Virus record (IMG/VR): IMGVR_UViG_3300014205_000203
DNA from: an uncultured virus (IMG/VR IMGVR_UViG_3300014205_000203)
Taxonomy: Duplodnaviria > Heunggongvirae > Uroviricota > Caudoviricetes
DNA: 64,000 bases
Reading direction: 5' to 3' (one strand)
Position numbers and translations under genes: made by a program. The notes under the pieces were generated by a model, which worked only from the letters and a program-made list of their open reading frames with translations, had not been told where the DNA came from and made no database searches. This document shows, in pieces, positions 1 through 39,800 of the stretch (its first letter is position 1; every line of letters starts with the position of its first letter).

Positions 1-153
1 ACATGGGTAATGTTGCGTTGGTTCGCTGTTCGTGGATTGCAAACCGGTTCGATGGCTGGCTGTTGTGGGTGCATTGGATGATGGGGAATTGTGTAGGTGC
101 ATAGAGTAGGAGAAATATTTAAGAGGAAATGCTCTTATTTCAAACATTTTGTT

Positions 154-161
154 TATCTTAG
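154..161 (+). promoter_or_regulatory. Possible Bacteroidota-type -7 promoter element (TAnnTTAG variant) before the early operon
   Basis: TATCTTAG is one mismatch from the TAnnTTTG consensus and lies 4 nt before ATG 166. The same TAnnTTAG-N4-ATG layout occurs at 60055-60041 (-). Confidence 0.35.
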
Positions 162-165
162 TGGC

Positions 166-1851
166 ATGATTGACAATTTTGCTGCATATAAGGACAAGAA
201 AATACCACGTTCATGGGAACTAACGGTTGAGCCTATGTACTTGGTTGTTGATTTGTTTTGTGGTGCTGGTGGTGTTACTACCGGATTTGCAGAAGCGCAG
301 TTGAATGGCAATCCATTCGTTAAGGTTATTGCATGTATCAACCATGACCACAAAGCAATCAAAAGCCATTGGGCTAATCATCCAGAAGTAATACACTTTG
401 AAGAAGATATACGCACACTCGAATTGAGTGGCTTATGTGATACTGTTGAGTACTGGCGAAGGATGTACCCGAATGCGTTAGTAATACTTTGGGGTAGTTT
501 GGAATGTACCAATTACAGCAAAGCTAAAGGAGGACAGGAGAAAGATGCAGACAGCAGAACATTGATGTATGCACTATACAAACATTGGACTGGCGAAGGC
601 TATGGTAAATCATCTTACGTTGAGGGTAAGTCATACATTCAATACATTAATCCAGACTACATAATGATTGAGAATGTAGAGGAATTTAAGACAAAGAATG
701 AGGACTTTGACGAATGGTGTAATGAGATAAACACGTTCGGTTATCGCAATGAATGGACAATGTTAAACAGCGCAAACTTCGGTGCATATACCAGCAGAGA
801 TAGGCTCTTTGGTTGCTTCGCTAAAGATGGTTTGCCTATCGTATTCCCACAACCAACACACGCAAAGAAGGTAGGAGTAAGCAAGAAGAACATGCTATTT
901 GCTGAATCATTACAACAATGGAAAGCTGTGAAGGAAGTATTAGATTTCACAGATGAAGGCAAGAGTATATTCAACCGTAAGAAGCCATTGGTAGAAGCTA
1001 CGCTGGCTCGTATCTATGCTGGGTTGATTAAGTATGTGGCTAATGGCGATACATCGTTTATTGCGAAGTATTACAGCGGCAGACCTAAAGGAAAAGTAAC
1101 CAGCACAGAGAATCCATTAGGAGCCATTACAACCGCTGGTAATCAGTCATTGATACAGTCTGTACGTTTCATAGATAATCAATACGGCAGAGGATATGCC
1201 AGCAGCATAGAAGACCCATTGAGTACACAAACAACTAAACCACGCCACAGCATTGTAGAAGTACAGAAATATGCTGCTACTCAAATACAAGATATTAATT
1301 CCCCTACTGGCGCTTTAATGACTACCGATAAGAATAGCCTTATTACTACTGTTCCTTTCATAATGGATACACAATTCAATAACACAGTTAGAAGCGTGGA
1401 AGATCCTATGGGAGTTATAACAGCTAATCGTAAATATCATTACTTAGTTAACCCATCATTCCCTAAAAATCCAAACAGAGGATTGCACAGCACAGACCAA
1501 CCGGCACCAGTTATTGTAGCCAGCCAAAATAAAGCACCGCTGCGTATGATTACCGTTGAGCATGGCTTAGTGCAAATACCTATCTATGATACAGACAGCG
1601 ATACAATGATTAAGATTAAAGAGTTCATGGTTATCTATGGTCTGGTTGATATTAAAATGAGAATGTTGAGGGTGCAAGAGTTAAAGATAATACAAGGCTT
1701 TCCTGCTGATTATATACTGGATGGTACACAGGAAGACCAGAAGAAATTTATCGGCAATAGCGTGGTGCCACAGGTCGTTAAATCATGGATAGAAGCAATG
1801 GCACAGGCAACCACGCCAGTAATAATAATGGAATACAAAAAAGCAGCATAA
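166..1851 (+). CDS. C5-cytosine DNA methyltransferase
   Basis: Motif I DLFCGAGG, catalytic SLECTNYS, motif VI ENVEEF, motif VIII SRDRLF, C-terminal QGFP and IGNSV. The centre has about five S-x-x-x-P-x-x-x-x-T-like repeats. ATG 166 preferred over GTG 97. Confidence 0.92.
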   Translation: MIDNFAAYKDKKIPRSWELTVEPMYLVVDLFCGAGGVTTGFAEAQLNGNPFVKVIACINHDHKAIKSHWANHPEVIHFEEDIRTLELSGLCDTVEYWRRMYPNALVILWGSLECTNYSKAKGGQEKDADSRTLMYALYKHWTGEGYGKSSYVEGKSYIQYINPDYIMIENVEEFKTKNEDFDEWCNEINTFGYRNEWTMLNSANFGAYTSRDRLFGCFAKDGLPIVFPQPTHAKKVGVSKKNMLFAESLQQWKAVKEVLDFTDEGKSIFNRKKPLVEATLARIYAGLIKYVANGDTSFIAKYYSGRPKGKVTSTENPLGAITTAGNQSLIQSVRFIDNQYGRGYASSIEDPLSTQTTKPRHSIVEVQKYAATQIQDINSPTGALMTTDKNSLITTVPFIMDTQFNNTVRSVEDPMGVITANRKYHYLVNPSFPKNPNRGLHSTDQPAPVIVASQNKAPLRMITVEHGLVQIPIYDTDSDTMIKIKEFMVIYGLVDIKMRMLRVQELKIIQGFPADYILDGTQEDQKKFIGNSVVPQVVKSWIEAMAQATTPVIIMEYKKAA

Positions 1852-1878
1852 TTAACCACTAACATAAACCATAACATC

Positions 1879-2352
1879 ATGTCAGCTACATCAACCAAAA
1901 CCTACAAATCATTTGCAAAGAATTTCAGGATTATTTGCGAGCCAGATGCACCAGCATTTAACAAAGTAAAAGTTTCCAGTTCAAGGGAGATTGATTTCTT
2001 TCTACGCAACCTTTGGAACATTGGACAGGATATTGAAATTGTTGAATCGTTCTATATCCTTCTTCTTAATCAGGGTAACAATATTACAGGATGGGTTAAG
2101 CTATCGTCTGGTGGTTTAACTGGTACAGTTGCAGACCCAGTACTGGTTGCTAAGTATGCAATAGAGCAGTTAGCTAAAAAGGTTGTAATAGCCCATAATC
2201 ACCCATCTGGAAACCTCCAACCATCAAGAGCCGATGAAGAAATGACAAGGCGCATAAAGGAAGGATTAAAGCTATTCGATATTCAGTTACTCGACCATAT
2301 CATTTTAACAGACGAAAGCTATTACTCATTCTCTGATGAAGGCATAATATAA
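1879..2352 (+). CDS. radC: RadC-like JAB/MPN domain protein
   Basis: ESFYILLL, AHNHPSGNLQPSRAD, LLDHIIL and YYSF motifs. Confidence 0.92.
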   Translation: MSATSTKTYKSFAKNFRIICEPDAPAFNKVKVSSSREIDFFLRNLWNIGQDIEIVESFYILLLNQGNNITGWVKLSSGGLTGTVADPVLVAKYAIEQLAKKVVIAHNHPSGNLQPSRADEEMTRRIKEGLKLFDIQLLDHIILTDESYYSFSDEGII

Positions 2353-2382
2353 TTCACCACTAATAAAATAAACTATAAAGCA

Positions 2383-2814
2383 ATGAACGCACAAAACACA
2401 CGCAGCAATCAAATAACCTTCCTTACAGCCTTTAGCACTCTATGGGTTGATGTAACAGCCATTGAAGCGCAGGATGGCAAAAATGGGCTGGAAACAACAG
2501 AAGGAAGCGACCAGCTAACCATAATGTTAAACTCATTCTGTAATGTAACGGGGTTACCTCAAATGAGTGCAGATGATCTTCTATTGAAATTACAGGATGA
2601 AGAAGTAAAAGCAGAAGCAAAATTATTCTTCTGGAAAGATAAATCAGGTAGGGGACAAAGTGGGCCTGTTACATTAGCTGGCATCCTTAATACTGCCGAT
2701 GATGATGAAGTAAACTATGATGATATTAAATTGGCTGAATGGGCAGAGAGCGCAGAACAAGGCGAAGAATGGGAGAATAGCACCGACCACTATGTTTGCA
2801 CCGAGGTTAACTGA
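2383..2814 (+). CDS. Hypothetical acidic protein; stop codon lies in the hammerhead 1 core
   Basis: 143 aa ORF with an A-rich leader. It ends GTT AAC TGA. Confidence 0.75.
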   Translation: MNAQNTRSNQITFLTAFSTLWVDVTAIEAQDGKNGLETTEGSDQLTIMLNSFCNVTGLPQMSADDLLLKLQDEEVKAEAKLFFWKDKSGRGQSGPVTLAGILNTADDDEVNYDDIKLAEWAESAEQGEEWENSTDHYVCTEVN

Positions 2815-2861
2815 CGAGGTTTTAATAACCGAAACCGGACACCTGGTGTCCGGTCTTAACC
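2805..2861 (+). ncRNA. Hammerhead ribozyme, type I (HHR1)
   Basis: GGTTAA-CTGACGA-[GGTT ttaat AACC]-GAAA-[CCGGACAC ctg GTGTCCGG]-TC-TTAACC. Full core with perfectly paired stems I-III. Predicted cut after GUC at C2855. Confidence 0.95.
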
Positions 2862-2878
2862 AAATAAAAAGATCATTT

Positions 2879-3154
2879 ATGAAAAATTTAATCGCTTTTA
2901 TCATCATCGGATTGCTAATCCTGTCCTTCCCTGCCAATGCTCAACCAAAGGTTGTGGAAGATGCTAACGGTAACTATAAAGCCGTTAAGAGTACAACAGC
3001 ACCAGCGCCGGAGCCAGCAACCAAAACAAAGAAAACCTTTACAGACACAAAAGGTATTGTTTACCCTGTCATGGTATCAAAGAACGGTAAGGAGTTCTAT
3101 GAAAGAGTAAGCAAAAAGGGTAATAAATACCGTGTGTACATCAAGGTTAACTGA
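2879..3154 (+). CDS. Small predicted secreted protein; stop codon lies in the hammerhead 2 core
   Basis: MKNLIAFIIIGLLILSFPANA-Q is a Sec-type signal peptide. ATG 2879 follows an A-rich leader (track start 2717 rejected). Confidence 0.75.
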   Translation: MKNLIAFIIIGLLILSFPANAQPKVVEDANGNYKAVKSTTAPAPEPATKTKKTFTDTKGIVYPVMVSKNGKEFYERVSKKGNKYRVYIKVN

Positions 3155-3199
3155 TGATGGCTTTAATAGCCGAAACAGGCTGTAAAGCCTGTCTTAACC
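3145..3199 (+). ncRNA. Hammerhead ribozyme, type I (HHR2)
   Basis: GGTTAA-CTGATGA-t-[GGCT ttaat AGCC]-GAAA-[CAGGCT gtaa AGCCTG]-TC-TTAACC. One extra U follows the CUGAUGA box. Predicted cut after C3193. Confidence 0.92.
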
Positions 3200-3216
3200 A
3201 AATAAAAAACTACATC

Positions 3217-3558
3217 ATGTACACACTCAAAAACAAAGTTCAACTTATTGGAAATTTAGGCAATGCGCCAGAAATCAAACAAACAGAAAACGGCACTATG
3301 GCTCGTTTCTCAGTTGCTATCAATGAAACATTCCACAATGCAAAAGGGGAAAAAGTAAAAGAAACAACATGGCATAGTTGTGTTGCATGGGGTAAAGTAG
3401 CTAAGATAGTAGAGAAGTATTTAAACAAAGCTGGTGCTGTGGCTATTGAAGGCAAATTGATTAATAGAAGTTACACCGATAAGGAGGGTAACAAAAAATA
3501 CATTACAGAAATAGAGGTAGGAGAAATTCTTCTTCTTGGAATGACACAGGTTAGCTGA
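3217..3558 (+). CDS. ssb: Single-stranded DNA-binding protein (short form, no acidic tail); stop codon lies in the hammerhead 3 core
   Basis: NKVQLIGNLG, ARFSVA, TTWHSCVAWGK and EGKLINRSYTDKEGNKKYITEI motifs. Confidence 0.93.
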   Translation: MYTLKNKVQLIGNLGNAPEIKQTENGTMARFSVAINETFHNAKGEKVKETTWHSCVAWGKVAKIVEKYLNKAGAVAIEGKLINRSYTDKEGNKKYITEIEVGEILLLGMTQVS

Positions 3559-3602
3559 CGAGGATTTATTATCCGAAACTGCCAGCAATGGCAGTCTTAA
3601 CC
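3549..3602 (+). ncRNA. Hammerhead ribozyme, type I (HHR3)
   Basis: GGTTAG-CTGACGA-[GGAT ttatt ATCC]-GAAA-[CTGCCA gcaa TGGCAG]-TC-TTAACC. Stem I has a G-U wobble and stem III has a GNRA loop. Predicted cut after C3596. Confidence 0.95.
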
Positions 3603-3620
3603 AAAAACCAATTACACATC

Positions 3621-4091
3621 ATGGAAACAAGCGAAATTACTGACAGTAAAAATATCTTTGACGATGTTCTGACAGTTATACAAAAAACAAATGACGGTGC
3701 AAATTTATCACCAAAAGATTTACACCTTACCGAATGTGCTATTAATGGCTTTCTTACAGAAGAAGGGATAGCAGAGTTTTACAGCGTGTATCATAGGGTT
3801 ATAGATGGCACCTATGATAAGCTAAAAAATTACCTGTTCGGAGTTGAACACATTACTAAAGACCATGAATGTTATGTGTATTACAAAGGGAAGCACATAG
3901 ATCATTTTACTTTCAATGGAGATTATAAAGGAGAAAGACAAGCAGCCATTAAAGCGGCTAAAATATGCTCACTATTGGAAAGTAAGAATATTGAAGTATC
4001 ACCGCTTACATATTGTTGGAAGGTGGAAGATTACCTGACAGCAGAAGAACTTGCAACCATTGAAGAACCAATGGGAGCATACGCAGATTAG
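3621..4091 (+). CDS. Hypothetical protein
   Basis: ATG 3621 follows the leader ttaaccaaaaaccaattacacatc. The ORF is flanked by HHR3 and HHR4. Confidence 0.75.
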   Translation: METSEITDSKNIFDDVLTVIQKTNDGANLSPKDLHLTECAINGFLTEEGIAEFYSVYHRVIDGTYDKLKNYLFGVEHITKDHECYVYYKGKHIDHFTFNGDYKGERQAAIKAAKICSLLESKNIEVSPLTYCWKVEDYLTAEELATIEEPMGAYAD

Positions 4092-4101
4092 CCCAGTCAG
4101 A

Positions 4102-4206
4102 GGTTAACTGATGAAGGCTAATTGCCCGAAAATCGGTAAGCAGTAACAAAAGCTGTGTGCATCATGTACCAATGGTTTGTTATAGAAGTCTTACCGATTA
4201 TTAACC
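4102..4206 (+). ncRNA. Hammerhead ribozyme, type I variant with extended stem III (HHR4)
   Basis: GGTTAA-CTGATGA-[aGGC taatt GCCc]-GAAA-[ATCGGTAAG...49 nt...CTTACCGAT]-TA-TTAACC. The cleavage triplet is UUA, with the predicted cut after A4200. The base of stem II is an A-C mismatch. Confidence 0.8.
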
Positions 4207-4223
4207 AAAAAAATTGAAATACT

Positions 4224-4868
4224 ATGTACACACCCAATCCAGAAATCGCCAAAATAATTTATCCTCTTAGCTATGTAAACGGCTGTATAGTTGATAAAAT
4301 TGGTCAGGTAATAATGAAAATGAACAGGGAACACGATAGCACCCCTTTAACCCCATCTTACAGAGATGATCTTGCAAAAGAAATTGTCGAACTGTACAAC
4401 AAAGCACATAGCCCGTCCTTCTTATTGTTAAGCTGGTGTACAGAAGATGTAATTGATAGGGCAAATGATATTGAATATGAGCATGAGATAACAGAAGAAC
4501 AGGCTATTGAAATTCTGGCTATGCTTGATGATGCACACGATGCCAATGTTGGCATTAACTGGGAGATAATAGATATAGTTACCCAGCAGTATTTTGATGA
4601 AAAGGAAAAGGAGAAAGAATTAAGCGACTTATCAAAGTTTGAGTTTCGGGATGGCAATTTCTACCCTTATGTAGAAGTTATGCTGCATGGCAATCTTGAA
4701 ACCATATCTACTGAAAGCCTTAGTAAAGTATTGATGAATGATGATGGCACAGAGCCAGTTAGCGAAGAAGCTGAACGCATGGACAATGCTATTTATTTCT
4801 ATGTACCAGATGAAATGATAACAAAGCCATTATCGGAACTTAAAAAATACATATTAGAACACGAATAA
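4224..4868 (+). CDS. Hypothetical acidic protein
   Basis: 214 aa ORF starting 23 nt after the HHR4 cut site. Confidence 0.75.
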   Translation: MYTPNPEIAKIIYPLSYVNGCIVDKIGQVIMKMNREHDSTPLTPSYRDDLAKEIVELYNKAHSPSFLLLSWCTEDVIDRANDIEYEHEITEEQAIEILAMLDDAHDANVGINWEIIDIVTQQYFDEKEKEKELSDLSKFEFRDGNFYPYVEVMLHGNLETISTESLSKVLMNDDGTEPVSEEAERMDNAIYFYVPDEMITKPLSELKKYILEHE

Positions 4869-4901
4869 CAAACCTTTATTAATAAACCAAAATCAATTAC
4901 C

Positions 4902-5219
4902 ATGTTACTAAATGACAAAACAAACCAGAACAAAATTAAAAGGGCGCAAGCCATTTTAAGGGCAGTCAGCCACAATTTAAGGCGTTCAATATTGGACACA
5001 ATAGAATTGAACGACAACAAAATTACTGTTACCGAAATCTACGTAAAATTAAGACTGGAGCAATCCGTTGCCAGCCAGCACTTAGCCATCTTACGTAAGG
5101 CAGGAATAGTAAAAACAGAAAGGAGTGGTAAGCTAATTTATTATTCTGTTAACAGCTTAGTAATTGAAGATGTACTTCAATGTTGTGTTGACCTTGAAAA
5201 AGCTACTACCAAAAGTTAA
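4902..5219 (+). CDS. ArsR/SmtB-family winged-helix regulator
   Basis: ILRAVSHNLRRSIL, TVTEIYVKLRLEQSVASQHLAILRKAGIVKTERSGKLIYYS. Confidence 0.9.
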   Translation: MLLNDKTNQNKIKRAQAILRAVSHNLRRSILDTIELNDNKITVTEIYVKLRLEQSVASQHLAILRKAGIVKTERSGKLIYYSVNSLVIEDVLQCCVDLEKATTKS

Positions 5220-5222
5220 CCA

Positions 5223-5272
5223 AAACTAAATGCTGACGGGCAGCCGGAATGTTCGAGCCATTCTTTATGTTT
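5223..5272 (+). ncRNA. Putative structured intergenic RNA with a tRNA T-arm-like hairpin
   Basis: Hairpin GCTG-acggg-CAGC is followed by GAATG-TTCGAGC-CATTC (5-bp stem, 7-nt TTCGA loop). A weak outer AU helix is possible. Confidence 0.4.
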
Positions 5273-5288
5273 CTAAATTTTAAACATC

Positions 5289-5549
5289 ATGGAACAAGTA
5301 ATTATTATAGCCGTATTGATGAATATGGGCTACAAAAAAAAGGCTTATGGCTATCAGAAGTTAACTGACAATACAACCCACTGGGTAACATTGTTCGATA
5401 CCAGTATGCAGATATGGGGCTTCCCAACAGAAGCAGAGCATAATGATGAAGTTGGTAAAACGTATGATACCGGCACCGTTGCTTATGACACATTAACCCC
5501 TGCATTATTCAGGAGTGTTATAGACCTGTTTCTAATCAATCACCAATAG
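5289..5549 (+). CDS. Hypothetical protein
   Basis: 86 aa ORF with an aaacatcATG leader like its neighbours. Confidence 0.65.
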   Translation: MEQVIIIAVLMNMGYKKKAYGYQKLTDNTTHWVTLFDTSMQIWGFPTEAEHNDEVGKTYDTGTVAYDTLTPALFRSVIDLFLINHQ

Positions 5550-5555
5550 TGTATA

Positions 5556-5813
5556 ATGGTAACAAAAATAACCTTAACAGGCGCAGCCATATCTTCTCCA
5601 CTCATTCAACAGAGTGGAAAGGTAGAACGTGCCACGTTCAGCATAGCAGTAACAGTGAAAGAAGAAACCGCACACTTTCCCGTTATATGCGAAGGCGAAC
5701 ACCTGGTATCAAGGGTAAGGAATGGAGTAACCGTAGGAACAAGGGTAAGCGTGGAAGTTACAGGAACATACGACCAGTTAATAGTCAGTTCAATGCTAAT
5801 AATGGCACAATGA
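5556..5813 (+). CDS. Divergent SSB/PriB-like OB-fold protein
   Basis: KITLTG, ATFSIAV, HFPVICEG and VGTRVSVE parallel the SSB strand pattern. Confidence 0.55.
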   Translation: MVTKITLTGAAISSPLIQQSGKVERATFSIAVTVKEETAHFPVICEGEHLVSRVRNGVTVGTRVSVEVTGTYDQLIVSSMLIMAQ

Positions 5814-6142
5814 TACTCTTTAAGATATTTTTTGTATTTGCCTGGGCTTTTGTTACTGACTTGTGCGTGTTCGCTCCGATCTATTTATCAGGAAGAATTT
5901 TGAAATTAATATTTTATAAACCCAAAACAAAAAAAAGACAATTTATGAAAAGAGTAATGTTAACCACTTGGCAGCTTTGCGCTGAAACCAAAGTAAGAAT
6001 GGAAAAGAATACGCTGGCGTATCAGGACACAACCACAAAAAAGGTTTATTCCTTATGCTCTGACGAAGTAAGAAGGTGGCTATCTGGTGGTGATGGTTCC
6101 ATCATTCCAAATGAAGAACCTGTTCCTAAAGAGGAAAGGTAG
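5810..6142 (+). CDS. Hypothetical protein (N-terminal hydrophobic segment; alternative start 5945)
   Basis: ATGA overlap with the previous stop. The track start at 5549 is rejected. Confidence 0.5.
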   Translation: MILFKIFFVFAWAFVTDLCVFAPIYLSGRILKLIFYKPKTKKRQFMKRVMLTTWQLCAETKVRMEKNTLAYQDTTTKKVYSLCSDEVRRWLSGGDGSIIPNEEPVPKEER

Positions 6143-6193
6143 CAACCATTCAATACCTATCAAGAACCCATTTACTAACTCAAACAAAATTTT

Positions 6194-6607
6194 ATGCAAC
6201 AACAATTCTTTAAAATAGAAAACTACGATGTAACCGACACAGAAGTTATCGTTACTACTGAACGGTACAAAATTGCCATCCCGGTTACTATTCCGAGGGA
6301 TAAGTTTGAATTGTGGTTAAGGGTAAAAGGTAAGCTACAATGGACTATCCACACTGGGGGTAAAATAAAGCAGTTCACCGGCACCATGTCATTGCCCGAA
6401 TACTGGGCAATAGATCAACAGCACATCAAACAGGATATTTACGAATACATCATCCTGCATCCAATTAAAAGGGATGGCGTTGTGTATTCAAATAGCATTG
6501 ATAGCCTGTTACTGGCCTTTGACCTCCACAACTCCCAGCGTGTAAACCCTGTATTTAATACCAGGTGGGAGTTTGAACAGGAAATTTTTGAACAAGTACT
6601 AAATTAA
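6194..6607 (+). CDS. Hypothetical protein
   Basis: 137 aa ORF with an A-rich leader. Confidence 0.7.
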   Translation: MQQQFFKIENYDVTDTEVIVTTERYKIAIPVTIPRDKFELWLRVKGKLQWTIHTGGKIKQFTGTMSLPEYWAIDQQHIKQDIYEYIILHPIKRDGVVYSNSIDSLLLAFDLHNSQRVNPVFNTRWEFEQEIFEQVLN

Positions 6608-6612
6608 TAGGT

Positions 6613-6804
6613 ATGTACACAACTAAAAATTACTATGCAAAAAAGATCAGGCAGCAATTAAAAAAGGCTGATGATGCCCGTATTGAAGCTGTTAAAGCTA
6701 ATAAAGACAATAATGCTTTGAGTATTGCCTATCTCACAGCACTATCTAATTTGAGCAACACTATTCAGCGAGCAATTACACACATTCAAAAAGAAAAAAA
6801 ATGA
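6613..6804 (+). CDS. Hypothetical protein
   Basis: 63 aa ORF tightly packed in the operon. Confidence 0.6.
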   Translation: MYTTKNYYAKKIRQQLKKADDARIEAVKANKDNNALSIAYLTALSNLSNTIQRAITHIQKEKK

Positions 6805-6953
6805 AAACAACAATCGCACACTTTCAATCTGCCATCATTGGCTATGTACGTATGGGCGCTTCCATACTGGAAATCGTTAGTAACATTGGTATAGCTGCAT
6901 CTGATGTAGAGGCGGTTATTATCCAGAACAAACTGCCTGTTAAACCAAACTAA
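6801..6953 (+). CDS. Small hypothetical protein (50 aa, not in ORF track)
   Basis: ATGA overlap. MKTTIAHFQSAIIGYVRMGASILEIVSNIGIAASDVEAVIIQNKLPVKPN fills the gap exactly. Confidence 0.6.
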   Translation: MKTTIAHFQSAIIGYVRMGASILEIVSNIGIAASDVEAVIIQNKLPVKPN

Positions 6954-6964
6954 ATTTTAAAGCT

Positions 6965-7660
6965 ATGCAGGAACTTATAACAGTTACGATAATGTACCGC
7001 AATAATTATGATGGCGGTGATGGGTGGACTTACTACCCAATGAGAATACGAATAGGCAGTAAATGCCCTGTTTGTAATGGGCTACGTGGTAAACCATACG
7101 AGTATAGGTTTTGTGATGATGGCGAATGGTTTACAGTTGATAAATGGGATAACCCGTGTGGGCACCTTGACAAGTATGGAGATGTTTATAAAGAATCAAA
7201 AAAAATTACAGAAATGATCTACAACGAATTTAAGCCGCTAAATTTCCCCGATGGGGTTAAATCAGTACTAACAGCCGAACGCTATCAAGGAACGCCGGTT
7301 ATTGTCTATACCAATGGCATAGAGCAGCATGTTTACAACATGGAAGGTGAACGGCTGGCGCTGCTATCCAGTTTCAAAGGAATAGACTTTTTAAAGCTGT
7401 CTTCCTCGGGTAAATGGTTTGCTTATGCCGGTGTGTATTTGAAGACAAGGAATTTGGGTAAAATCGTTCTGAATGAGGCTGTAAAGTTTGTTATAACCGA
7501 TGTGCTGGTGTACGATGGCGAATGTGTCATTAATATGCCTGGGGAAATAAGGGTACAAACATACCTATCAAAAATGCAGTACCATCCTGCAGCCGGGAAA
7601 GCGGAGATTTACAATTTTGTATCAGGCACCCCGATAAGTGGTGTATTTATAAACGCATAA
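6965..7660 (+). CDS. Zn-ribbon-like domain fused to a degenerate ATP-dependent ligase-like domain
   Basis: N-terminal CPVC...CGH. The C-terminal half has AERYQG (cf. KxDG) and ITDVLVYDG (cf. ligase motif IIIa). Confidence 0.45.
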   Translation: MQELITVTIMYRNNYDGGDGWTYYPMRIRIGSKCPVCNGLRGKPYEYRFCDDGEWFTVDKWDNPCGHLDKYGDVYKESKKITEMIYNEFKPLNFPDGVKSVLTAERYQGTPVIVYTNGIEQHVYNMEGERLALLSSFKGIDFLKLSSSGKWFAYAGVYLKTRNLGKIVLNEAVKFVITDVLVYDGECVINMPGEIRVQTYLSKMQYHPAAGKAEIYNFVSGTPISGVFINA

Positions 7661-8343
7661 TGATAGTAACAATCAATACAGATGCCTCATGGCACCCAAA
7701 AGAAAACTATGCAGGATTTGCTTTCTGGATAGTTTGTGATCAGGGTAAGTTTTGCCATGCAGGTATTTTAAAGAAACGGGTTATGCGACCAGAGATCGCA
7801 GAATTTAAGTGCATCATTAATGCTATCTATGTGCTGGGTAAACTCAATTACTCTAACGTAAACAAGATCATTATAAACACAGATTGCCTTAATGTTATTC
7901 ACCTGATTAAGAAGGACAAGAAAGCCATTAATATGTATGGTCTTCATTGGGGTAAGCACCTGGTATTAGAATATGAAAGATTGCTTAAAATTCAGAAAAT
8001 ACCAAAGAACAGATTTGATTTCCGGCATGTAAAAGCCCATGAAGAAATAAGCACTGCAAGGCAATATGTAAATGACTGGTGCGATAAAGCAGCGAAGGAA
8101 CAAATGTGGAAGAAGGTTAACAGTACAAAAGCTATTGTAAAAAACTGGAATGATTTAAAAGATCAGTTTGGATATGAAAGAGCAAAGCTGCTGGCTATGT
8201 CTGTAAGTAATGGTATTACTTGCTGGCCTCCACCTGACCATTTGGAGTTTCCATGTAGCGACAATAGTGATGCTATTGCATTATTCAGCCTTGTGGAAAC
8301 AGATAAGAAAATAATTTACGAATACAGAGGAACAGCTAATTAA
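7660..8343 (+). CDS. RNase H-like (RNase HI fold) protein with C-terminal extension
   Basis: INTDAS, AEF, INTDC, RHVKAH and NDWCDKAA match the RNase HI acidic catalytic pattern. Confidence 0.85.
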   Translation: MIVTINTDASWHPKENYAGFAFWIVCDQGKFCHAGILKKRVMRPEIAEFKCIINAIYVLGKLNYSNVNKIIINTDCLNVIHLIKKDKKAINMYGLHWGKHLVLEYERLLKIQKIPKNRFDFRHVKAHEEISTARQYVNDWCDKAAKEQMWKKVNSTKAIVKNWNDLKDQFGYERAKLLAMSVSNGITCWPPPDHLEFPCSDNSDAIALFSLVETDKKIIYEYRGTAN

Positions 8344-8349
8344 ATAATT

Positions 8350-8670
8350 ATGCATCCAATTATATTAGACGGCAAAAAATATTATTACCATTTTCAAAAG
8401 CTATCCAGAAATAGCACTGACCCTATATTTGGAGAGTTTAGGATTAATTTTTATAGGAAAGTCATAGTTCCTAAATGGAAGTTCTGGTTTATAAAATCAT
8501 CAACGAAAATTGAAAACACTATTGATATGGGTTATGTTGATGGAACTTTTGAAATAGTAGGCGACTTCGATTCCATGTCAGAAATGAAGAAGCAACGAGA
8601 AATTGTAAGACCGTCATTAATAGGTTTTATTACTGAACACAACAAGCGAACAAACTCACTCACCAAATAA
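8350..8670 (+). CDS. Hypothetical protein
   Basis: 106 aa ORF in the operon. Confidence 0.6.
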   Translation: MHPIILDGKKYYYHFQKLSRNSTDPIFGEFRINFYRKVIVPKWKFWFIKSSTKIENTIDMGYVDGTFEIVGDFDSMSEMKKQREIVRPSLIGFITEHNKRTNSLTK

Positions 8671-8677
8671 AAAAACA

Positions 8678-9115
8678 ATGAAAAAAGTAACAGTATTTGA
8701 CAACAAGACACTTGCAGTAATCGGCAGATTATTACAATCAAAAGCCGCCCACATTGCAAAATCTCATAAAAGAATGTTTTTGGAAAGTGGATATATCCTC
8801 TTTGCTCCTTTCTACATGAGAGATAAACTATTCGCCCAGGTAAAGCCGGGAGAACGTCATTTAAAATTGATTGAAGAACCCACTATGTACCCACAGGTAT
8901 TTATAACGGGTGAATTGCCAACCAATTACCCTGCAGAATTTTACAAAGCTGCGTTAACTGCCGATGCATTGGCTGGCTGGGGTGCTTGTATGGCTGGTAT
9001 TCCAATGCCTGAAAAATTCGGCTGGGGAATGATGATGATAGGCACTGTATTGGGCATTACTATGACCCCGGACAGTGTATCAGAATACGCAAAACAATTT
9101 TTACCACAATCATAA
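8678..9115 (+). CDS. Hypothetical protein
   Basis: 145 aa ORF in the operon. Confidence 0.65.
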   Translation: MKKVTVFDNKTLAVIGRLLQSKAAHIAKSHKRMFLESGYILFAPFYMRDKLFAQVKPGERHLKLIEEPTMYPQVFITGELPTNYPAEFYKAALTADALAGWGACMAGIPMPEKFGWGMMMIGTVLGITMTPDSVSEYAKQFLPQS

Positions 9116-9139
9116 TTAAAAACTAAAAAATCAAATTTT

Positions 9140-9463
9140 ATGAGTACAGCAACACAACCAAAATTACCATCAGATTTTACAATAGCCCCGTGGAACTCGG
9201 TGCTACAAAAATCAGAAGCAGAAACCATAGCGGCAAACATTATGGTTATCCTGAAAAGAACCGGCAACCAGTGGAGAACCTTAACCTGGGATGAATACAA
9301 GGAAGAAAGGCTAAAGGATGCAAAAACTGACAGGAGCCATTTCACCGAAGGCGAAAAGTTTTATTTTGATCTGTGTATTCCCTATTGCTTAACTGCCGAA
9401 ACCGCTGCTTTATTTGCGCCAGACTGGAAAAAAATTGCTAACGGTGAACCCATTGACTGCTAA
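9140..9463 (+). CDS. Hypothetical protein
   Basis: 107 aa ORF with an A-rich leader. Confidence 0.7.
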   Translation: MSTATQPKLPSDFTIAPWNSVLQKSEAETIAANIMVILKRTGNQWRTLTWDEYKEERLKDAKTDRSHFTEGEKFYFDLCIPYCLTAETAALFAPDWKKIANGEPIDC

Positions 9464-9466
9464 CCT

Positions 9467-10186
9467 ATGAACACACTATTTCACAGGGGAGAAGACCCCA
9501 AAGATGAATGGTTAACACCTCCAAAGATTAAAGAACCTTTGGGGGTGTTCGACCTTGACCCGTGCGCTCCGGTTAACCGTCCGTGGGACACAGCCAAAAA
9601 ACACTATACCATCGAAGATAACGGGCTAATACAGCCGTGGGAAGGTAGAGTGTGGATGAATCCCCCATATTCAAATATGGAGCCGTGGATGAAGCTATTA
9701 GCAGAGCATGGAAACGGGTTTGCCCTGACCTTTGCCCGGACAGAAACCGCATGGTTTGAACGCTGGGGATGGGGTAAAGCTGATAGTATGTTTTTCTTCT
9801 TTGGTCGTCTTACCTTCTATGAACTGCCAAAAGTAACCACAGGATCTTTGTTTGGTGCAGACGGACGGGTGCCGGTTAAGGGAAAAGGAAATGCCGGGGC
9901 TCCATCCGTCCTGATCGCTTACGGTAAGAATAACGTAGAAGCGTTACACGAATACAAGATACCAGGTAAGCACGTACAGCTTACATATACTCCCATCATT
10001 GTAGTAGGCATATCTCCAAAATGGATATCAGTAGTAACCATTGCTGTAAAACAATTCGGGGATGATGAATTACAACCAGTGTATGATATGGTTGAAAGGA
10101 TTGCGCCGGACAAGGTGGCTAAAAACCAGCACTGGAAAGCAAAGGTTAGACAACAAATTCAGTTAATCAGAAAACAAAAGGTATGA
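9467..10186 (+). CDS. Phage Dam-like DNA N6-adenine methyltransferase
   Basis: DEWLTP, FDLDPCA, VWMNPPY, ARTETAWF and GRLTF motifs. Confidence 0.9.
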   Translation: MNTLFHRGEDPKDEWLTPPKIKEPLGVFDLDPCAPVNRPWDTAKKHYTIEDNGLIQPWEGRVWMNPPYSNMEPWMKLLAEHGNGFALTFARTETAWFERWGWGKADSMFFFFGRLTFYELPKVTTGSLFGADGRVPVKGKGNAGAPSVLIAYGKNNVEALHEYKIPGKHVQLTYTPIIVVGISPKWISVVTIAVKQFGDDELQPVYDMVERIAPDKVAKNQHWKAKVRQQIQLIRKQKV

Positions 10187-10662
10187 TACGAACTCCTTAC
10201 ATGCAGCAGATAATGAACGATACCTACAATCAGGTTGCCATTATCGCAATTAAAAACGGCACTATTGAAGGTGCCTGGGAAGAAGCAGTTGCAGCAAGAT
10301 TAATGCTCGACTTTAATCACGGTGTTTCAGAAGCAGAGGTAATTCTGCAATTTGCAGACAATGATGAAAAGAAGGCCGCAGACCTTATTATCACATCATC
10401 ACTTCCAGAAGTGCCGGAGATATTCAATATTGAATTTCAGTATCAGGAATATTTAAAGCGTGTGGCATTGTCCGAAGAACACATGCACCAGCAGCAGAAA
10501 AAACAACTCCGGGAAACATTCTTTGGTGCCGTTGGCTGTGTGCTTATCCTCCTGCGTAATGAAACACAGAAACTATCGGAAGAAGATTCTATCAAAGCAT
10601 TCCAGTCTATGCTTGACCAGGTAGGGGAATTTTTTCTTAAAAAATCAGATCAACAAAATTAA
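10183..10662 (+). CDS. Hypothetical protein
   Basis: 159 aa ORF with an ATGA overlap. Confidence 0.65.
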   Translation: MIRTPYMQQIMNDTYNQVAIIAIKNGTIEGAWEEAVAARLMLDFNHGVSEAEVILQFADNDEKKAADLIITSSLPEVPEIFNIEFQYQEYLKRVALSEEHMHQQQKKQLRETFFGAVGCVLILLRNETQKLSEEDSIKAFQSMLDQVGEFFLKKSDQQN

Positions 10663-10663
10663 T

Positions 10664-10879
10664 ATGGGATATTTTGTAGCAAAACAAGGGCCTGACAAAT
10701 ACACAAAACGTAAAGCATCTAAGGATTGCTGGTGTCTTTGTTGCGAAGAACCTATTAAAAAAGGGGAAGAACGATATGTAGAATCGCATAGGCTAAATTT
10801 ATGTTGCCTGTGTTTTGATCAATGGGACGGGATGCCGCACGGAACAGCTTTAGGTAATATACCAAGATGTAAGAGATAA
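10664..10879 (+). CDS. Small Cys-rich (Zn-finger-like) protein
   Basis: CLCCEEPIKKGE...CCLC. Confidence 0.6.
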   Translation: MGYFVAKQGPDKYTKRKASKDCWCLCCEEPIKKGEERYVESHRLNLCCLCFDQWDGMPHGTALGNIPRCKR

Positions 10880-10890
10880 AATACTACAGT

Positions 10891-11124
10891 ATGAAAAAAC
10901 TCTATAAAACTAAAAGGAAGGGGACTATTTTAACGAACCTGCAGAAGCCGTTAGCTTCGCACCAAACTAAGATCTGTTCAGTAAAACTTGTCTGCGGAGG
11001 CATACCTCTCCCAAATAACCGGAGCCACTTCTATGCTAACTGTTCTGCCTGTATTGCTTGTACAGCTGAAAAATCAAAAAAGAAGTGGGAGGAAAAGAAA
11101 AAAAGCAAAGAGATTTATTTATAA
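10891..11124 (+). CDS. Small basic Cys-containing protein
   Basis: CxxxxxC...CxxCxxC; Lys-rich. Confidence 0.5.
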   Translation: MKKLYKTKRKGTILTNLQKPLASHQTKICSVKLVCGGIPLPNNRSHFYANCSACIACTAEKSKKKWEEKKKSKEIYL

Positions 11125-11141
11125 CTATAAAAGCTACCATT

Positions 11142-11528
11142 ATGAGATTATTTAAAAAATTCAGCAGCTTCAATCTTAGCCATTATATCCTTGTATCAAT
11201 AACTTTTCGTGGCTGGTGTTACCTTGAAGAAAATGAACGGGAAAATTTGATCACTGCAATAATGAATAGTAAAGTAATTGTTGACGGTAAAGCATATTAC
11301 AAATTACAGGCTGGCCTTGTTATGCAGATATTTGGAGCCCAGTCCTCCGGTTCACACCAGTTAATAGAAACAAATATCCTGATTCCAAAGGGCACCCAAA
11401 GTGAACTGAAAATATACAGGAGGAAAGTTAGAAACCAAAAGCTAAAGGTTATTGCGACCTGGGTAGGAATTTATGTAGTAAGTGTAGTGGTTCTTTACTA
11501 CCTAATATCAAAATACACCGGATTATAG
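11142..11528 (+). CDS. Hypothetical membrane-anchored protein
   Basis: ATG 11142 and a C-terminal hydrophobic helix. Confidence 0.55.
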   Translation: MRLFKKFSSFNLSHYILVSITFRGWCYLEENERENLITAIMNSKVIVDGKAYYKLQAGLVMQIFGAQSSGSHQLIETNILIPKGTQSELKIYRRKVRNQKLKVIATWVGIYVVSVVVLYYLISKYTGL

Positions 11529-36700: not shown

Positions 36701-36828
36701 TTGTAAATAGATTGCAACCCAGCATCCAAATTTTTGGCAACACGGGAGTACGCAATAAACTCAACAAGATCGTTAAGGTCGTTGCGTAGTGTGGTATTCT
36801 TTACTAAACAAGAAATATCAAGCATCAC
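33712..36828 (-). CDS. Large helical protein, putative injected (cargo) virion protein
   Basis: 1038 aa, follows the giant polyvalent genes. C-terminal HhH-like ILPGIGPKT. Confidence 0.55.
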   Translation of the reverse strand: MMLDISCLVKNTTLRNDLNDLVEFIAYSRVAKNLDAGLQSIYNDIRMSGIEVDLQTIGFIYNDVLPKSYAQFDSDHDVNEYALKSYNDAINRAARLEAPEQLERQIGQNSPDLEVVNGILNMFTKLNTEISDPIYSDMRMMQEALWKGIQRKLNLTNSAVPKDQKDWEELLTQALGYENLGMTDINGRLNGIDDLFNSMKDQLDTATQEMEAKGDYATAQKWREMTGKLKASAYSLLFSKQEAKTFITSIMKEAGYGKELKDGKTVIDWKKLSNETGSVLDIYNNIDRVMRDKGYSDSVIDGVQDSFVNELNDLNAKIVEWRLKQMENKSEALNRASNKKTDLKRLAELNNLGIFQSAHDKLLSSVVGISDLQAQDLADLEELAKAASNLYREIDKNYGNDVFASSALQTIQRHIDRIVQRNINNKSVLMRIISAIKNFMDILLTGMLMGPLTIMENWLSGIKETMTPILSGKAKFTNTEDREVYRSVLADVIVRGQAYGEEVGSFAPRELYSNSLRWKWKGGTLKDKAESVLYGLMAPARLGLLGFDSANKAVITNKTFHNAMYQALLQHGKTEEEAANILNEALHGKKFEDAKTDASDILNNINTQLSAKYAIPVNNSTITRLANDLVKANLNTDGLFTDRAKAIEIVVSTLKGSYHVAGYGLGHEPNNPLSKMIKDARDRMVKGEEKLRSAKKWDRLAWHKLGSTFMNGMILRFTGGATNWVVLRAQSGLGLGIASGFLGGNANADIDFKNTDTIKQSIRERLGARNQIGRGMAGLSYTLMGYVVYYLLTKGGDDDRERKKKRLEELSKYVQTPEVKLEIKQLTSEASIMQQIKSSYMGNRLFKKVSPDLMLLQYYVQTDKNAWMGATNYVIKTSGIASDFSTASKFNDAMNYYRNNEIDPGNGALASIAGDRTAVPLWRAYKDWYKLGNWIVGNNVSSDFKKPTNISEGIFGGGALEDWGVYQRNSSITILPGIGPKTIERYKTLGIENMGDLEKNPGWENMMYINEKGQPEFILDSDDRKAAKAAAEKWIKEN

Positions 36829-39800
36829 TTACATTTATCAATGAAATTTTTAATTTTGTCAACTATGCTGCTCATGCCTCCCTTCTTCGCAATTTCATCT
36901 GCTTTTGCAGCTGCAGTTTTTTGCGCTTCAACCGGCGACATAGTTTTTTTATTCTGTTTCTTCTTTATGTTGTCAGCTTTTTTTTCTGCCGCCTCTGCCT
37001 CTGCCGCATCCTTCTCCTGCTGACTGATTTTACGAAATTCTTCAATTCCCGCTTGAACACGACTTTCAATATCGGCCTGTTCAGCTTGTAATTTACGTAA
37101 TAAGTTTTGGTCTTTAATTTCACGTTCTTCAAGTATTTGGTTAGCAAATAGATCACCCATATATTTATCACGATACAACCGTAACAATGCACCGGCAGAA
37201 ACCTCTTTACCTCTTTTATTCATGTACTCCTGATAATACTGTGTAACTGCATTATCCAATCCACGCAGTTCATCTACCCTTTCTGGATTACGGTTTATTT
37301 CTTCCCGAATTTCTCCCAGGAAGGTTGCCATCAGCACTGCTTTTTTAGCCAACAGTTCTTCATCACCACTCATGCCTTTAATATAATTGAAAAGAGGCTG
37401 GCCGTAATCGGATAGATCGCTGCCCCATTTTCCCATTGCGGCACCAATCATATTTTTACCATCCTGCAACATATCAACACGGCGCTGGGTGAGGTAGCTT
37501 TGATCTCCTTCTGGAGCATAACCCAAAGCGGAAGTAATTGTATTACCGGAAAGCATATCCTTCACTTCGCCAGAGGTTGACATTTGATAATCACCGATCG
37601 GGTCCCGGCTTTCCCATTCTTCATAATCTTGTTGGTTGTCCTCCTGTTCTTCTTCCTTCTGGCGCTCTCTTAAAATATCAGCAACAGCACGGGTAGAAAA
37701 TTCTTCAAAGGTTAAATTTTGAAGTTCTGCAGAAGTAATATTGTCAAAGCCTAAAGCATTTTTGATAGCATTCCATAAAGATTTTAACCATGCAGTAATG
37801 CCTTCTTTTCTTGCTTCTGTTACAAACTGGGCTCCTTTATCTCCAATAGCCATAGCAAGAGCCTCATGCTGATAAAACCTTTCTCTTTCATCCTCTGCAA
37901 GTTTTGCAGCCTGTTGTTGATAGAAAGGATTTGATTTTACTTTGTCCAGGTACGAACTGCCAGAAACAAGTTCAATACCACGGTTATAAATTTCTGGTCT
38001 GTTTTGTTGTGCCCAATTAGTCCAGATATGCCCAGCTTCATGGATGGGGGTATTAGGATTAAGATGTTTACCGTTAAGATAAATTTTACCGGCATGAGTA
38101 AATCCTAAAATTTTACCTTCTGGTGAATACTGAAAGAAAACATCATCCAACTTGTATTTTTTAATTATATCCTTAGCTTCCTGCATTTCTGAATCTCTAA
38201 AAAATTCTTGTAACACAGGGGTTCCTTCCGATATATAAATACCTATCATCCTTTCAATAAACTTGTGTGCATCATATTCAAGACTACCTTTTCTATCATA
38301 CTCTATGCTATCGTATTCTTCCTGTGTAGCATAATCCTTTTGGTCAAATTCCACTTTACTGGAATACTGTGCAGCATGGGCTAATTCTGTTACGAAATCA
38401 TCAAAGCTGGCAATGTTACCTAATTGAATATTTCCTTTAAAAATATCGGCTGTCGCATAAGGCCGCTTTCTGTTAGCCAAATCATATTTCGTCCTTAAAA
38501 TATCAGGCTTACCGAAACGCTCCCATAATTTTAAAGCCCGTTCTATAACTTCCTTTGGCGCAACTTCATCATTAACAGCATAAGATTGTTGCAACAACTC
38601 AACAACAGTATTTTTAGTAGAAATATCAACTTTAGGGTTTGATGTTGAAAGAGTAATTGTAGTTAACGCAGCAGCTACAAAGTTCCTTACATAATTCTGG
38701 TATTCCACATTGCCCAGTTCTGCGGCTTTATCTTTTAAAGCCTCTGTGTTTGGTAATATCTCAACCCCATTGCCATTAATAGCATTAAGGTTACTTTCAA
38801 TTCTATCAATCACACTCATTACCATAGCAAAAGGTGTATCTTCTCCCCGGCCATATTCGTGGTATGCTTCTTCTACCAGTTTACGCATTTGTGGTGAATC
38901 ATCTTCCAGTTCCGTAGCTACAAGGTTTTGAATATCCACCAGACGATTATTACCCAGGTCTATTTGCTCTTTAACAACTTCCTGCATTTCCTGTATTTCA
39001 TCGGGAGTAGGGCCGGTAACAGAAAATTCAGGTTCCATTTCTGCATCATCCTCATTTGGCCGTCCTTCCTCTTTGTAGGTGAAGAAGCGGAAACCATCTT
39101 GCTTTGCAAGGTTAACCATGTGCCCTAAATTGCCGGAAGTTTTTAAACCCAGTGCATTTGATAAGTCCTGATCATTTGCTATTCTTAGCACCTGACCATC
39201 TGAACGGATAACATATAAATTTTCCAGTTCAAATTCATTAGGAAATTCTTCACGTTCGCCCAGGGCTTCAAGTTCTTCAGCAGAAGGAACACTTTTTTGT
39301 TTTGACATTTCATCAAGCAAAGTGGCTAACCTCAATTGATTTGCAACAGCATCTTCCAGTTCTTTTTGTTTAGGAAATTCGGCTGGTAATGATTCAAGAT
39401 ACTGGCTCTTGTCCTTAATATCTTTTTCATAAGATTTAAGCCACCCCTTTTTTCGGTCAATATCTGGTTGCTGGTTCCTTATTTCACGTTGGAAGTACCC
39501 AGCCAGACTAACAGCATCAACAGAAAAAGACGGGTCGTATGGAACATTAGAAATAGGGCTCTTAACTGTGAAGTATGGCACTAATTGAACTCCCTTTTCT
39601 CCTTCATCCCCCCTCATTTTTATAACAACATCAAAGCCAGCAATATTTCCTATCACTTTTGAATCGCTCTTTACCTCTTTCCAATCTTTCTTTTTTAATT
39701 TAAGAGTTTCAGGATAACGCTGTACAAAATCCCTGATATAATCTTTCCGAACCTGCAGCAGTTTATCTCCGGCTTTTTTACGCTCTGTAAATTCTTCGCC

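Follow-up and report, generated by a model that had tools for sequence, protein, structure and literature searches.

Can a phage transcript that carries several small genes be divided into single-gene messages by the RNA itself? This question is raised by a locus in a 64,000-nucleotide (nt) stretch of DNA from an uncultured tailed virus (IMG/VR record IMGVR_UViG_3300014205_000203; this whole stretch is called the window below), in which four type I hammerhead ribozyme motifs, all on the + strand, lie between five small genes. The initial annotation of the locus had proposed that these motifs cut a polycistronic early messenger RNA (mRNA) into gene-sized units. Judged from the sequence, this is probable: the four motifs would act in cis, as type I hammerheads that self-cleave a polycistronic phage RNA into single-gene mRNAs.

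All four elements share the same succession of parts: stem I, CUGANGA, stem II, GAAA, stem III, U-H and the returning strand of stem I (stem I', UUAACC). The 5' strand of stem I is GGUUAA in copies 1, 2 and 4 and GGUUAG in copy 3, where the GGUUAG/UUAACC duplex includes one G-U pair. The type I architecture, in which the junction is surrounded by an open stem I and loop-capped stems II and III, is present in every copy, as is the core, composed of C3 U4 G5 A6 N7 G8 A9, G12 A13 A14, the A15.1-U16.1 pair and an H17 other than G (C in copies 1-3 and A in copy 4). Direct reading bore out the coordinates, strand and order of parts given in the initial annotation, and the stems that it listed for stems II and III are correct. 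The pattern CTGANGA..CGAAA..TTAACC has three matches in the window against 0.01 expected, and none of 100 shuffled sequences reached three. The word GGTTARCTGANGA occurs without mismatch exactly four times in the window, once in each element. A descriptor scan of both strands returned only these four sites, two under strict rules and all four when stem II pairing was waived. A covariance model of the family described below also recovered only these four sites over the 64 kb, copies 1, 2 and 3, which belonged to its training set, scoring 71.2, 68.1 and 65.3 bits, respectively, and copy 4 lying outside that set. Energy minimization yields the hammerhead fold for copies 1, 3 and 4.

The window copies are members of a large family. 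IMG/VR viral contigs were scanned with the pattern GGTTAR-CTGANGA-N8-20-CGAAA-N12-40-TTAACC, which requires no pairing in stems II and III, and the motif was found at at least 128 loci in uncultured viral contigs, many with 2-5 copies. Among the matches listed, stem II has at least 3 base pairs (bp) in 134 of 145 distinct matches (about 19.6 of 145 after shuffling) and stem III, including A15.1-U16.1, has at least 3 bp in 143 of 145 (about 6.7 after shuffling); U-H stands directly 5' of UUAACC in 143 of 145. The 145 distinct matches were aligned with MAFFT, and this alignment (A1) was the source of the covariance model. Over 15 tested pairs in the region of stems II and III, and again among the matches listed, 97.6% of its cells are standard-paired compared with 77.4% in shuffled controls, and double-change cells number 457 compared with 123. 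When the partner was slid by 1-3 columns as a control, 23-41% of the cells paired. Unguided RNAalifold folding gave stems I and III and, of the four pairs of stem II, three. Loop II usually reads U-NNN-U, and stem I is flanked by an A on its 5' side (95%) and by two on its 3' side (99% and 84%; among the matches listed). The positions that are invariant in the family are those of the unpaired hammerhead core, and the paired positions vary with compensation. Core, family covariation and covariance model together support the view, already taken in the initial annotation, that these are canonical type I hammerheads with covarying stems.

This pattern of variation also bears on the idea that the elements are repeats acting at the DNA level, either recombination sites like the attC sites of integrons or protein-binding repeats, with an incidental likeness to hammerheads. 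Structured repeats in one orientation between small cassettes would be in keeping with such a role. However, the invariant positions are exactly those of the unpaired core while the paired positions compensate, and the elements are always on the coding strand of the flanking genes (among the matches listed). The core sites of attC are RYYYAAC and GTTRRRY, and inspection by eye revealed no fit to this consensus. A DNA-level role of the repeats is very unlikely.

Stem I appeared invariant in the first scan because the search pattern had fixed it. In a second scan a common stem II was fixed and stem I left free, which gave 116 distinct matches. Stem I is exactly 6 bp long in 111 of the 116, with about 36 different compensated pairings among the matches listed, and GGTTAA/TTAACC makes up only 15 of the 116 variants. 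The notion of an invariant stem I was rejected: it covaries widely once left free.

That all four window copies carry the same stem I, although this is a minority variant when stem I is free, would suit a further possibility, in which the cut products are rejoined by the ribozyme or by an RtcB-type ligase into circular or spliced RNAs. The ends of an excised unit can pair and be ligated because its 5' end is UUAACC and the ribozyme at its 3' end carries GGUUAA. The main text of Perreault et al. (PMC3088659) raises this possibility too, but also relates that circular or spliced products were sought and none were found. Moreover, end-to-end compatibility is not conserved, because neighbouring copies elsewhere in the family have different, internally compensated stems I: those of locus L023 are GGTTTA/TAAACC, GACTAA/TTAGTC, GGTTAA/TTAACC and GGGTAA/TTACTC, and loci L010 and L016 combine GGTTAA with GGTCTA/TAGATC. 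The stem I duplex is also predicted to be weak (about -4.1 kcal/mol). Rejoining is considered very unlikely.

Self-processing of an operon is also suggested by the placement of the motifs. The initial annotation had located them at successive gene boundaries, as the positions of the open reading frames (ORFs) confirm (Table 1), and its predicted cut positions and unit lengths are correct. The next AUG lies 23, 23, 24 and 23 nt from predicted cuts 1-4, respectively. A comparable layout is observed across the family: among the matches listed, the upstream stop codon overlaps the ribozyme at 82 of 149 junctions, abuts it at 12, lies 1-10 nt upstream at 34 and further away at 8, and the other 13 have no ORF of at least 40 codons ending nearby. 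The first AUG is 18-24 nt past the cut at 113 of 148 junctions, and successive cuts are 179-2573 nt apart (47 gaps; likewise among the matches listed).

Table 1. Features of the hammerhead array and its genes in the window (aa, amino acids). Cuts and RNA units are predicted.
Feature	Position	Strand	Remarks
Upstream ORF, 143 aa	2383-2814	+	No Pfam family; stop UGA 2812-2814 is the UGA of the hammerhead 1 core
Hammerhead 1, type I	2805-2861	+	Core CUGACGA; stem I GGUUAA/UUAACC; stem II GGUU/AACC, loop UUAAU; stem III CCGGACAC/GTGTCCGG, 9 bp counting A15.1-U16.1; cut after C2855
RNA unit 1, 338 nt	2856-3193	+
Unit 1 ORF, 91 aa	2879-3154	+	Hydrophobic N-terminus; phrog_16207, function unknown; stop UGA 3152-3154 is in the hammerhead 2 core
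Hammerhead 2	3145-3199	+	Core CUGAUGA; stem II GGCU/AGCC; stem III CAGGCU/AGCCUG; cut after C3193
RNA unit 2, 403 nt	3194-3596	+
Unit 2 ORF, ssb, 113 aa	3217-3558	+	PF00436, E 1.7e-29; stop UGA 3556-3558 is in the hammerhead 3 core
Hammerhead 3	3549-3602	+	Stem II GGAU/AUCC; stem III CUGCCA/UGGCAG; cut after C3596
RNA unit 3, 604 nt	3597-4200	+
Unit 3 ORF, 156 aa	3621-4091	+	No family; stop UAG ends 10 nt before hammerhead 4
Hammerhead 4, atypical	4102-4206	+	UA cleavage site; cut after A4200; found by descriptor only with the relaxed stem II rule
First gene after the array, ORF of 214 aa	4224-4868	+
A-rich post-cut leaders	2856-2878, 3194-3216, 3597-3620, 4201-4223	+	23-24 nt, 50-57% A, predicted mostly unpaired

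From these features the following course of events can be proposed. The motifs lie in a + strand module for replication and anti-defence, in a tailed phage with a probable Bacteroidota host. If this module is transcribed as one unit, each motif would fold during transcription into a hammerhead with 6 bp in stem I, 4 bp in stem II and a GC-rich stem III, and would cut after H17. The upstream piece would retain its stop codon and carry the folded ribozyme and a 2',3'-cyclic phosphate at its 3' end, while the weak 6-bp stem I would release the downstream piece, which would begin with a 5'-OH and an unstructured, A-rich leader of 23-24 nt before the AUG. Separate mRNAs for the 91-aa protein, SSB and the 156-aa protein would be produced, in addition to the rest of the operon, and the stability and translation of these separated mRNAs would be uncoupled from each other. 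The transcript would be polycistronic, and the gene content suggests that the operon is an early one, as proposed in the initial annotation.

A more specific role can be imagined, in which the family with the 6-bp stem I is a dedicated cistron insulator of Bacteroidota phages, cleavage switching on the downstream gene and cutting being sensitive to upstream translation. The insulator would be tuned to a host in which translation starts independently of Shine-Dalgarno pairing. Cleavage could be needed for the downstream gene because it would remove a folded ribozyme about 17 nt upstream of the AUG and leave a fixed leader of about 23 nt, A-rich and unstructured, with a 5'-OH end. A terminating ribosome could unfold the ribozyme because the upstream ORF ends within stem I or the core, and cutting would therefore respond to the translation load of the upstream gene. 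Such a dedicated insulator is unlikely.

Several observations, on the locus as a whole and on its individual copies, weigh against self-processing by four ribozymes. The search of the window with Rfam hammerhead models, a check proposed in the initial annotation, gave no match at curated thresholds and only alignments below them: no Rfam family matched anywhere in the window at gathering thresholds, and no hammerhead was reported at E<=10 on positions 2600-4400. With a 91-base query (2790-2880), RF00163 (Hammerhead_1) aligned end-to-end with 2805-2861 and matched every core position, at 14.1 bits against a cutoff of 34. On the same query RF03152 (RAGATH-1-hammerhead) scored 19.9 bits against a cutoff of 56.3; its model positions 26-77 align with copy 1, and its first 25 positions have no counterpart here. 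Standard annotation would not report the motifs, because these scores are below threshold. No promoter was found, and a sigma-70 scan, with 24 sites against 38 expected from shuffled sequences, was uninformative. A screen of sequencing runs for the region listed no RNA run that contains it, one DNA run that contains it in full and one DNA run with a small share. A tertiary contact or pseudoknot between loop II and the flanks of stem I has no convincing covariation in the family, the best of 135 mutual-information tests being equalled in 2 of 200 permutations. Finally, the family model found the motif in none of 23 viral loci anchored on ssb (39-53% identity), and no orthologous array was found among them.

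The absence of the motif from all 23 ssb relatives would also be in keeping with a different explanation, namely that the motifs are mainly passengers of gene shuffling: conserved modules that would mark the boundaries of recombining small accessory-gene cassettes and hardly influence expression. The genes on either side are small, and most are orphans. Among the matches listed, the downstream ORFs have a median of 73 aa (n=124), and 8 of 121 have a Pfam match (E<=0.001): four are TreK-like, one is RadC, one is DUF7222 and two are weak. Junctions also reassort on both sides. Pairs of junctions from different loci have homologous flanks on both sides in 19 cases, upstream only in 120 and downstream only in 36 (among the matches listed), but it cannot be told from these counts with which flank the ribozyme travels, because they are dominated by one large family. 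On the other hand, every core base and the compensatory pairing have been kept across hundreds of divergent copies, and the conserved ends, of only about 12-13 nt, are short for homologous exchange. A predominantly passenger status is quite unlikely, and the self-processing of a phage transcript is the preferred reading.

A further reservation concerns the copies themselves. The initial annotation described the elements correctly but overlooked two irregularities, an extra U in copy 2, and in copy 4 a short stem II with an A·C mismatch and a 49-nt insert. The core flanks (10.1-11.1, 1.1-2.1 and 15.1-16.1) are free of mispairs in copies 1 and 3, in copy 2 only if the extra U is counted as an insertion, and not in copy 4. 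The extra U of copy 2 (position 3158) lies between A9 and stem II. A competing fold of this copy is, moreover, predicted to be 3.3 kcal/mol more stable than the hammerhead fold (-23.8 versus -20.5 kcal/mol). Stems II and III share the words GGCU and AGCC, which makes this cross-paired alternative possible; it might serve as a kinetic or conditional brake on cleavage ahead of ssb. An extra core nucleotide has reportedly been described in a viroid hammerhead by De la Peña and Flores (2001). In copy 4, stem II has only 3 bp (GGC/GCC) and the A·C mismatch (10.1/11.1) lies next to the core. A mispair at this position was a rejection criterion for candidates, according to the methods of Perreault et al. 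(PMC3088659). Stem III of copy 4 is ATCGGTAAG/CTTACCGAT (in RNA, AUCGGUAAG/CUUACCGAU) and contains the structured insert (4141-4189).

It is possible, if doubtful, that only some of the copies are active, copies 1 and 3 being constitutive and copies 2 and 4 slow, conditional or dead, which would give products larger than single genes. The inserted U and the competing fold of copy 2, and the A·C pair beside the core and the 3-bp stem II of copy 4, are what such a division would predict, and the main text of PMC3088659 reports slow core variants in phages. Against it, 14 of 146 distinct family members share the U insertion after A9 (among the matches listed), which suggests that this insertion is tolerated by selection; co-transcriptional folding favours local hairpins; and copy 4 still reaches 52.1 bits (E 3e-10, one non-standard pair) with the family model. 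Given the irregularities beside the core in copies 2 and 4, four active ribozymes are not assured, and these two copies may be slower than the others.

Two side observations concern repeats in and near the array. The insert of copy 4 forms its own hairpin (UAACAAA/UUUGUUA) and includes CATCATGTAC (4160-4169), identical to the 10-mer across the ssb start codon (3213-3222), a word with three matches in the window against 0.13 expected. The insert may be the scar of a former gene start, and its AUG-led mini-frame would cross the cut site. Downstream of the array, TTAACCAAA occurs a fifth time on the + strand (5216-5224), across the stop codon of the ArsR-type gene (4902-5219) and with CTGACGG after it. 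No hammerhead was detected at 5216-5224 by the family model or by the descriptor, and this repeat may be a decayed junction or due to chance.

The array lies inside a + strand gene block (97-11528) that encodes a C5 methyltransferase, RadC, ssb, the ArsR-type regulator and RNase H. Between positions 1 and 12000, 12 terminator-like sites were detected, none of them on the + strand. In a subfamily of the motif (loci L008, L029, L031, L033, L048, L060, L115, L117 and others), stem III has the form AUAAAGGCCC...GGGCUUUUAU, a GC hairpin followed by a U run that resembles an intrinsic terminator and stands just before the cleavage site; members of this subfamily have a homologous upstream gene in common. 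A large terminase, an endolysin, a tail spike and a DarB-like protein of 3245 aa identify the window as tailed phage DNA. The DarB-like anti-restriction and methyltransferase protein (phrog_10089, 1202.7 bits) is encoded by a giant gene at 36825-46562 (-), and the adjoining giant gene (46720-53718, -; 2332 aa) has no PHROG or Pfam match. A + strand ORF without a Pfam family is still open where the window ends (60092-64000, at least 1303 aa); it overlaps several short minus-strand ORFs and exits in the same frame as the methyltransferase ORF (97-1851).

The host is probably a member of the Bacteroidota. All 82 deposited phages with terminase matches (identity about 25% or less) are phages of Flavobacterium, Cellulophaga or Maribacter, bar one record without a host. 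Among 16 bacterial genome contigs with the motif pattern, 8 bear names assigned to Bacteroidota. A blastn search of positions 2300-5300 against deposited phages gave no match, and the 214-aa and 156-aa neighbours have no relatives among viral contigs. The family model did, however, give one match each in two of four cultured phage genomes tested, both with a full core by eye. In Cellulophaga phage phi19:3 (NC_021789.1, 21766-21820, -) the motif lies between the hypothetical genes gp051 and gp050, with the stop codon of gp051 inside stem I, and no annotated feature names it. In Flavobacterium phage vB_FspP_elemoA_13-1B (MT497087.1, 27355-27418, -) the single motif lies between small hypothetical genes. 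These two phages would thus allow a direct test of the processing model in culture.

Processing of phage mRNA between genes is known from T7, with which the initial annotation had compared the locus. There, RNase III cuts the polycistronic early transcript between genes and leaves a hairpin at the 3' ends; the enzyme is a host protein, the sites are double-stranded, and the ends produced are 5'-phosphate and 3'-OH. In the window, by contrast, the RNA would cut itself and leave 5'-OH and 2',3'-cyclic phosphate ends. RiboJ-type insulators work in a comparable way: the hammerhead in front of a gene shortens its 5' untranslated region to a constant short leader, and expression becomes independent of what lies upstream. 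These insulators are engineered from a satellite RNA ribozyme and are not a natural phage element.

The closest precedents are natural arrays. According to the main text of Perreault et al. [quoted passage not shown] These authors infer that long phage transcripts are processed into operon-length or gene-length mRNAs. Native transcripts of about 2 kb from three arrays gave products of the expected size in vitro, and the ribozymes of A. tumefaciens were active in vivo as well. In two reviews (PMC6765202 and PMC6155905), the processing of prophage arrays is restated and the role of bacterial and phage hammerheads is called an open question. The novelty implied by the initial annotation does not stand, since both the arrangement and its interpretation are already in print (PMC3088659; PMC6765202; PMC6155905). 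Self-processing of the operon is the most reasonable inference for the window, matching the in vitro results on other prophage arrays. A strict 6-bp stem I, a stop codon in the ribozyme and a fixed leader were not found in the main text of PMC3088659, where the term "stop codon" has no occurrence, nor in the parts of the two reviews considered.

A single-copy parallel is provided by HHphage of haloviruses HF1 and HF2, which is likewise phage-borne and, according to the main text of PMC3088659, lies 13 nt upstream of the start codon of an early gene, with a mapped transcript 5' end within 3 nt of the cleavage site. Unlike the array of the window, it is present in one copy, has an unusual core insertion, belongs to an archaeal virus and heads a polycistronic transcript. 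The window holds a tidy four-copy example of the arrangement described in 2011, and its motifs belong to a large family that goes undetected at Rfam thresholds and is associated mostly with phages of Bacteroidota. The layout of this family is strict: the upstream ORF ends within the ribozyme or beside it, stem I has exactly 6 bp, and a leader of about 20 nt precedes the AUG. Like the arrays of Perreault et al., that of the window consists of several same-strand hammerheads flanking single small, non-conserved phage genes, four of them here bracketing three. Unlike those arrays, it has only type I copies with a stem I of exactly 6 bp, a probable Bacteroidota host lineage, an upstream stop codon inside the ribozyme (copies 1-3) and a fixed distance of 23-24 nt from cut to AUG, and its cleavage is predicted.

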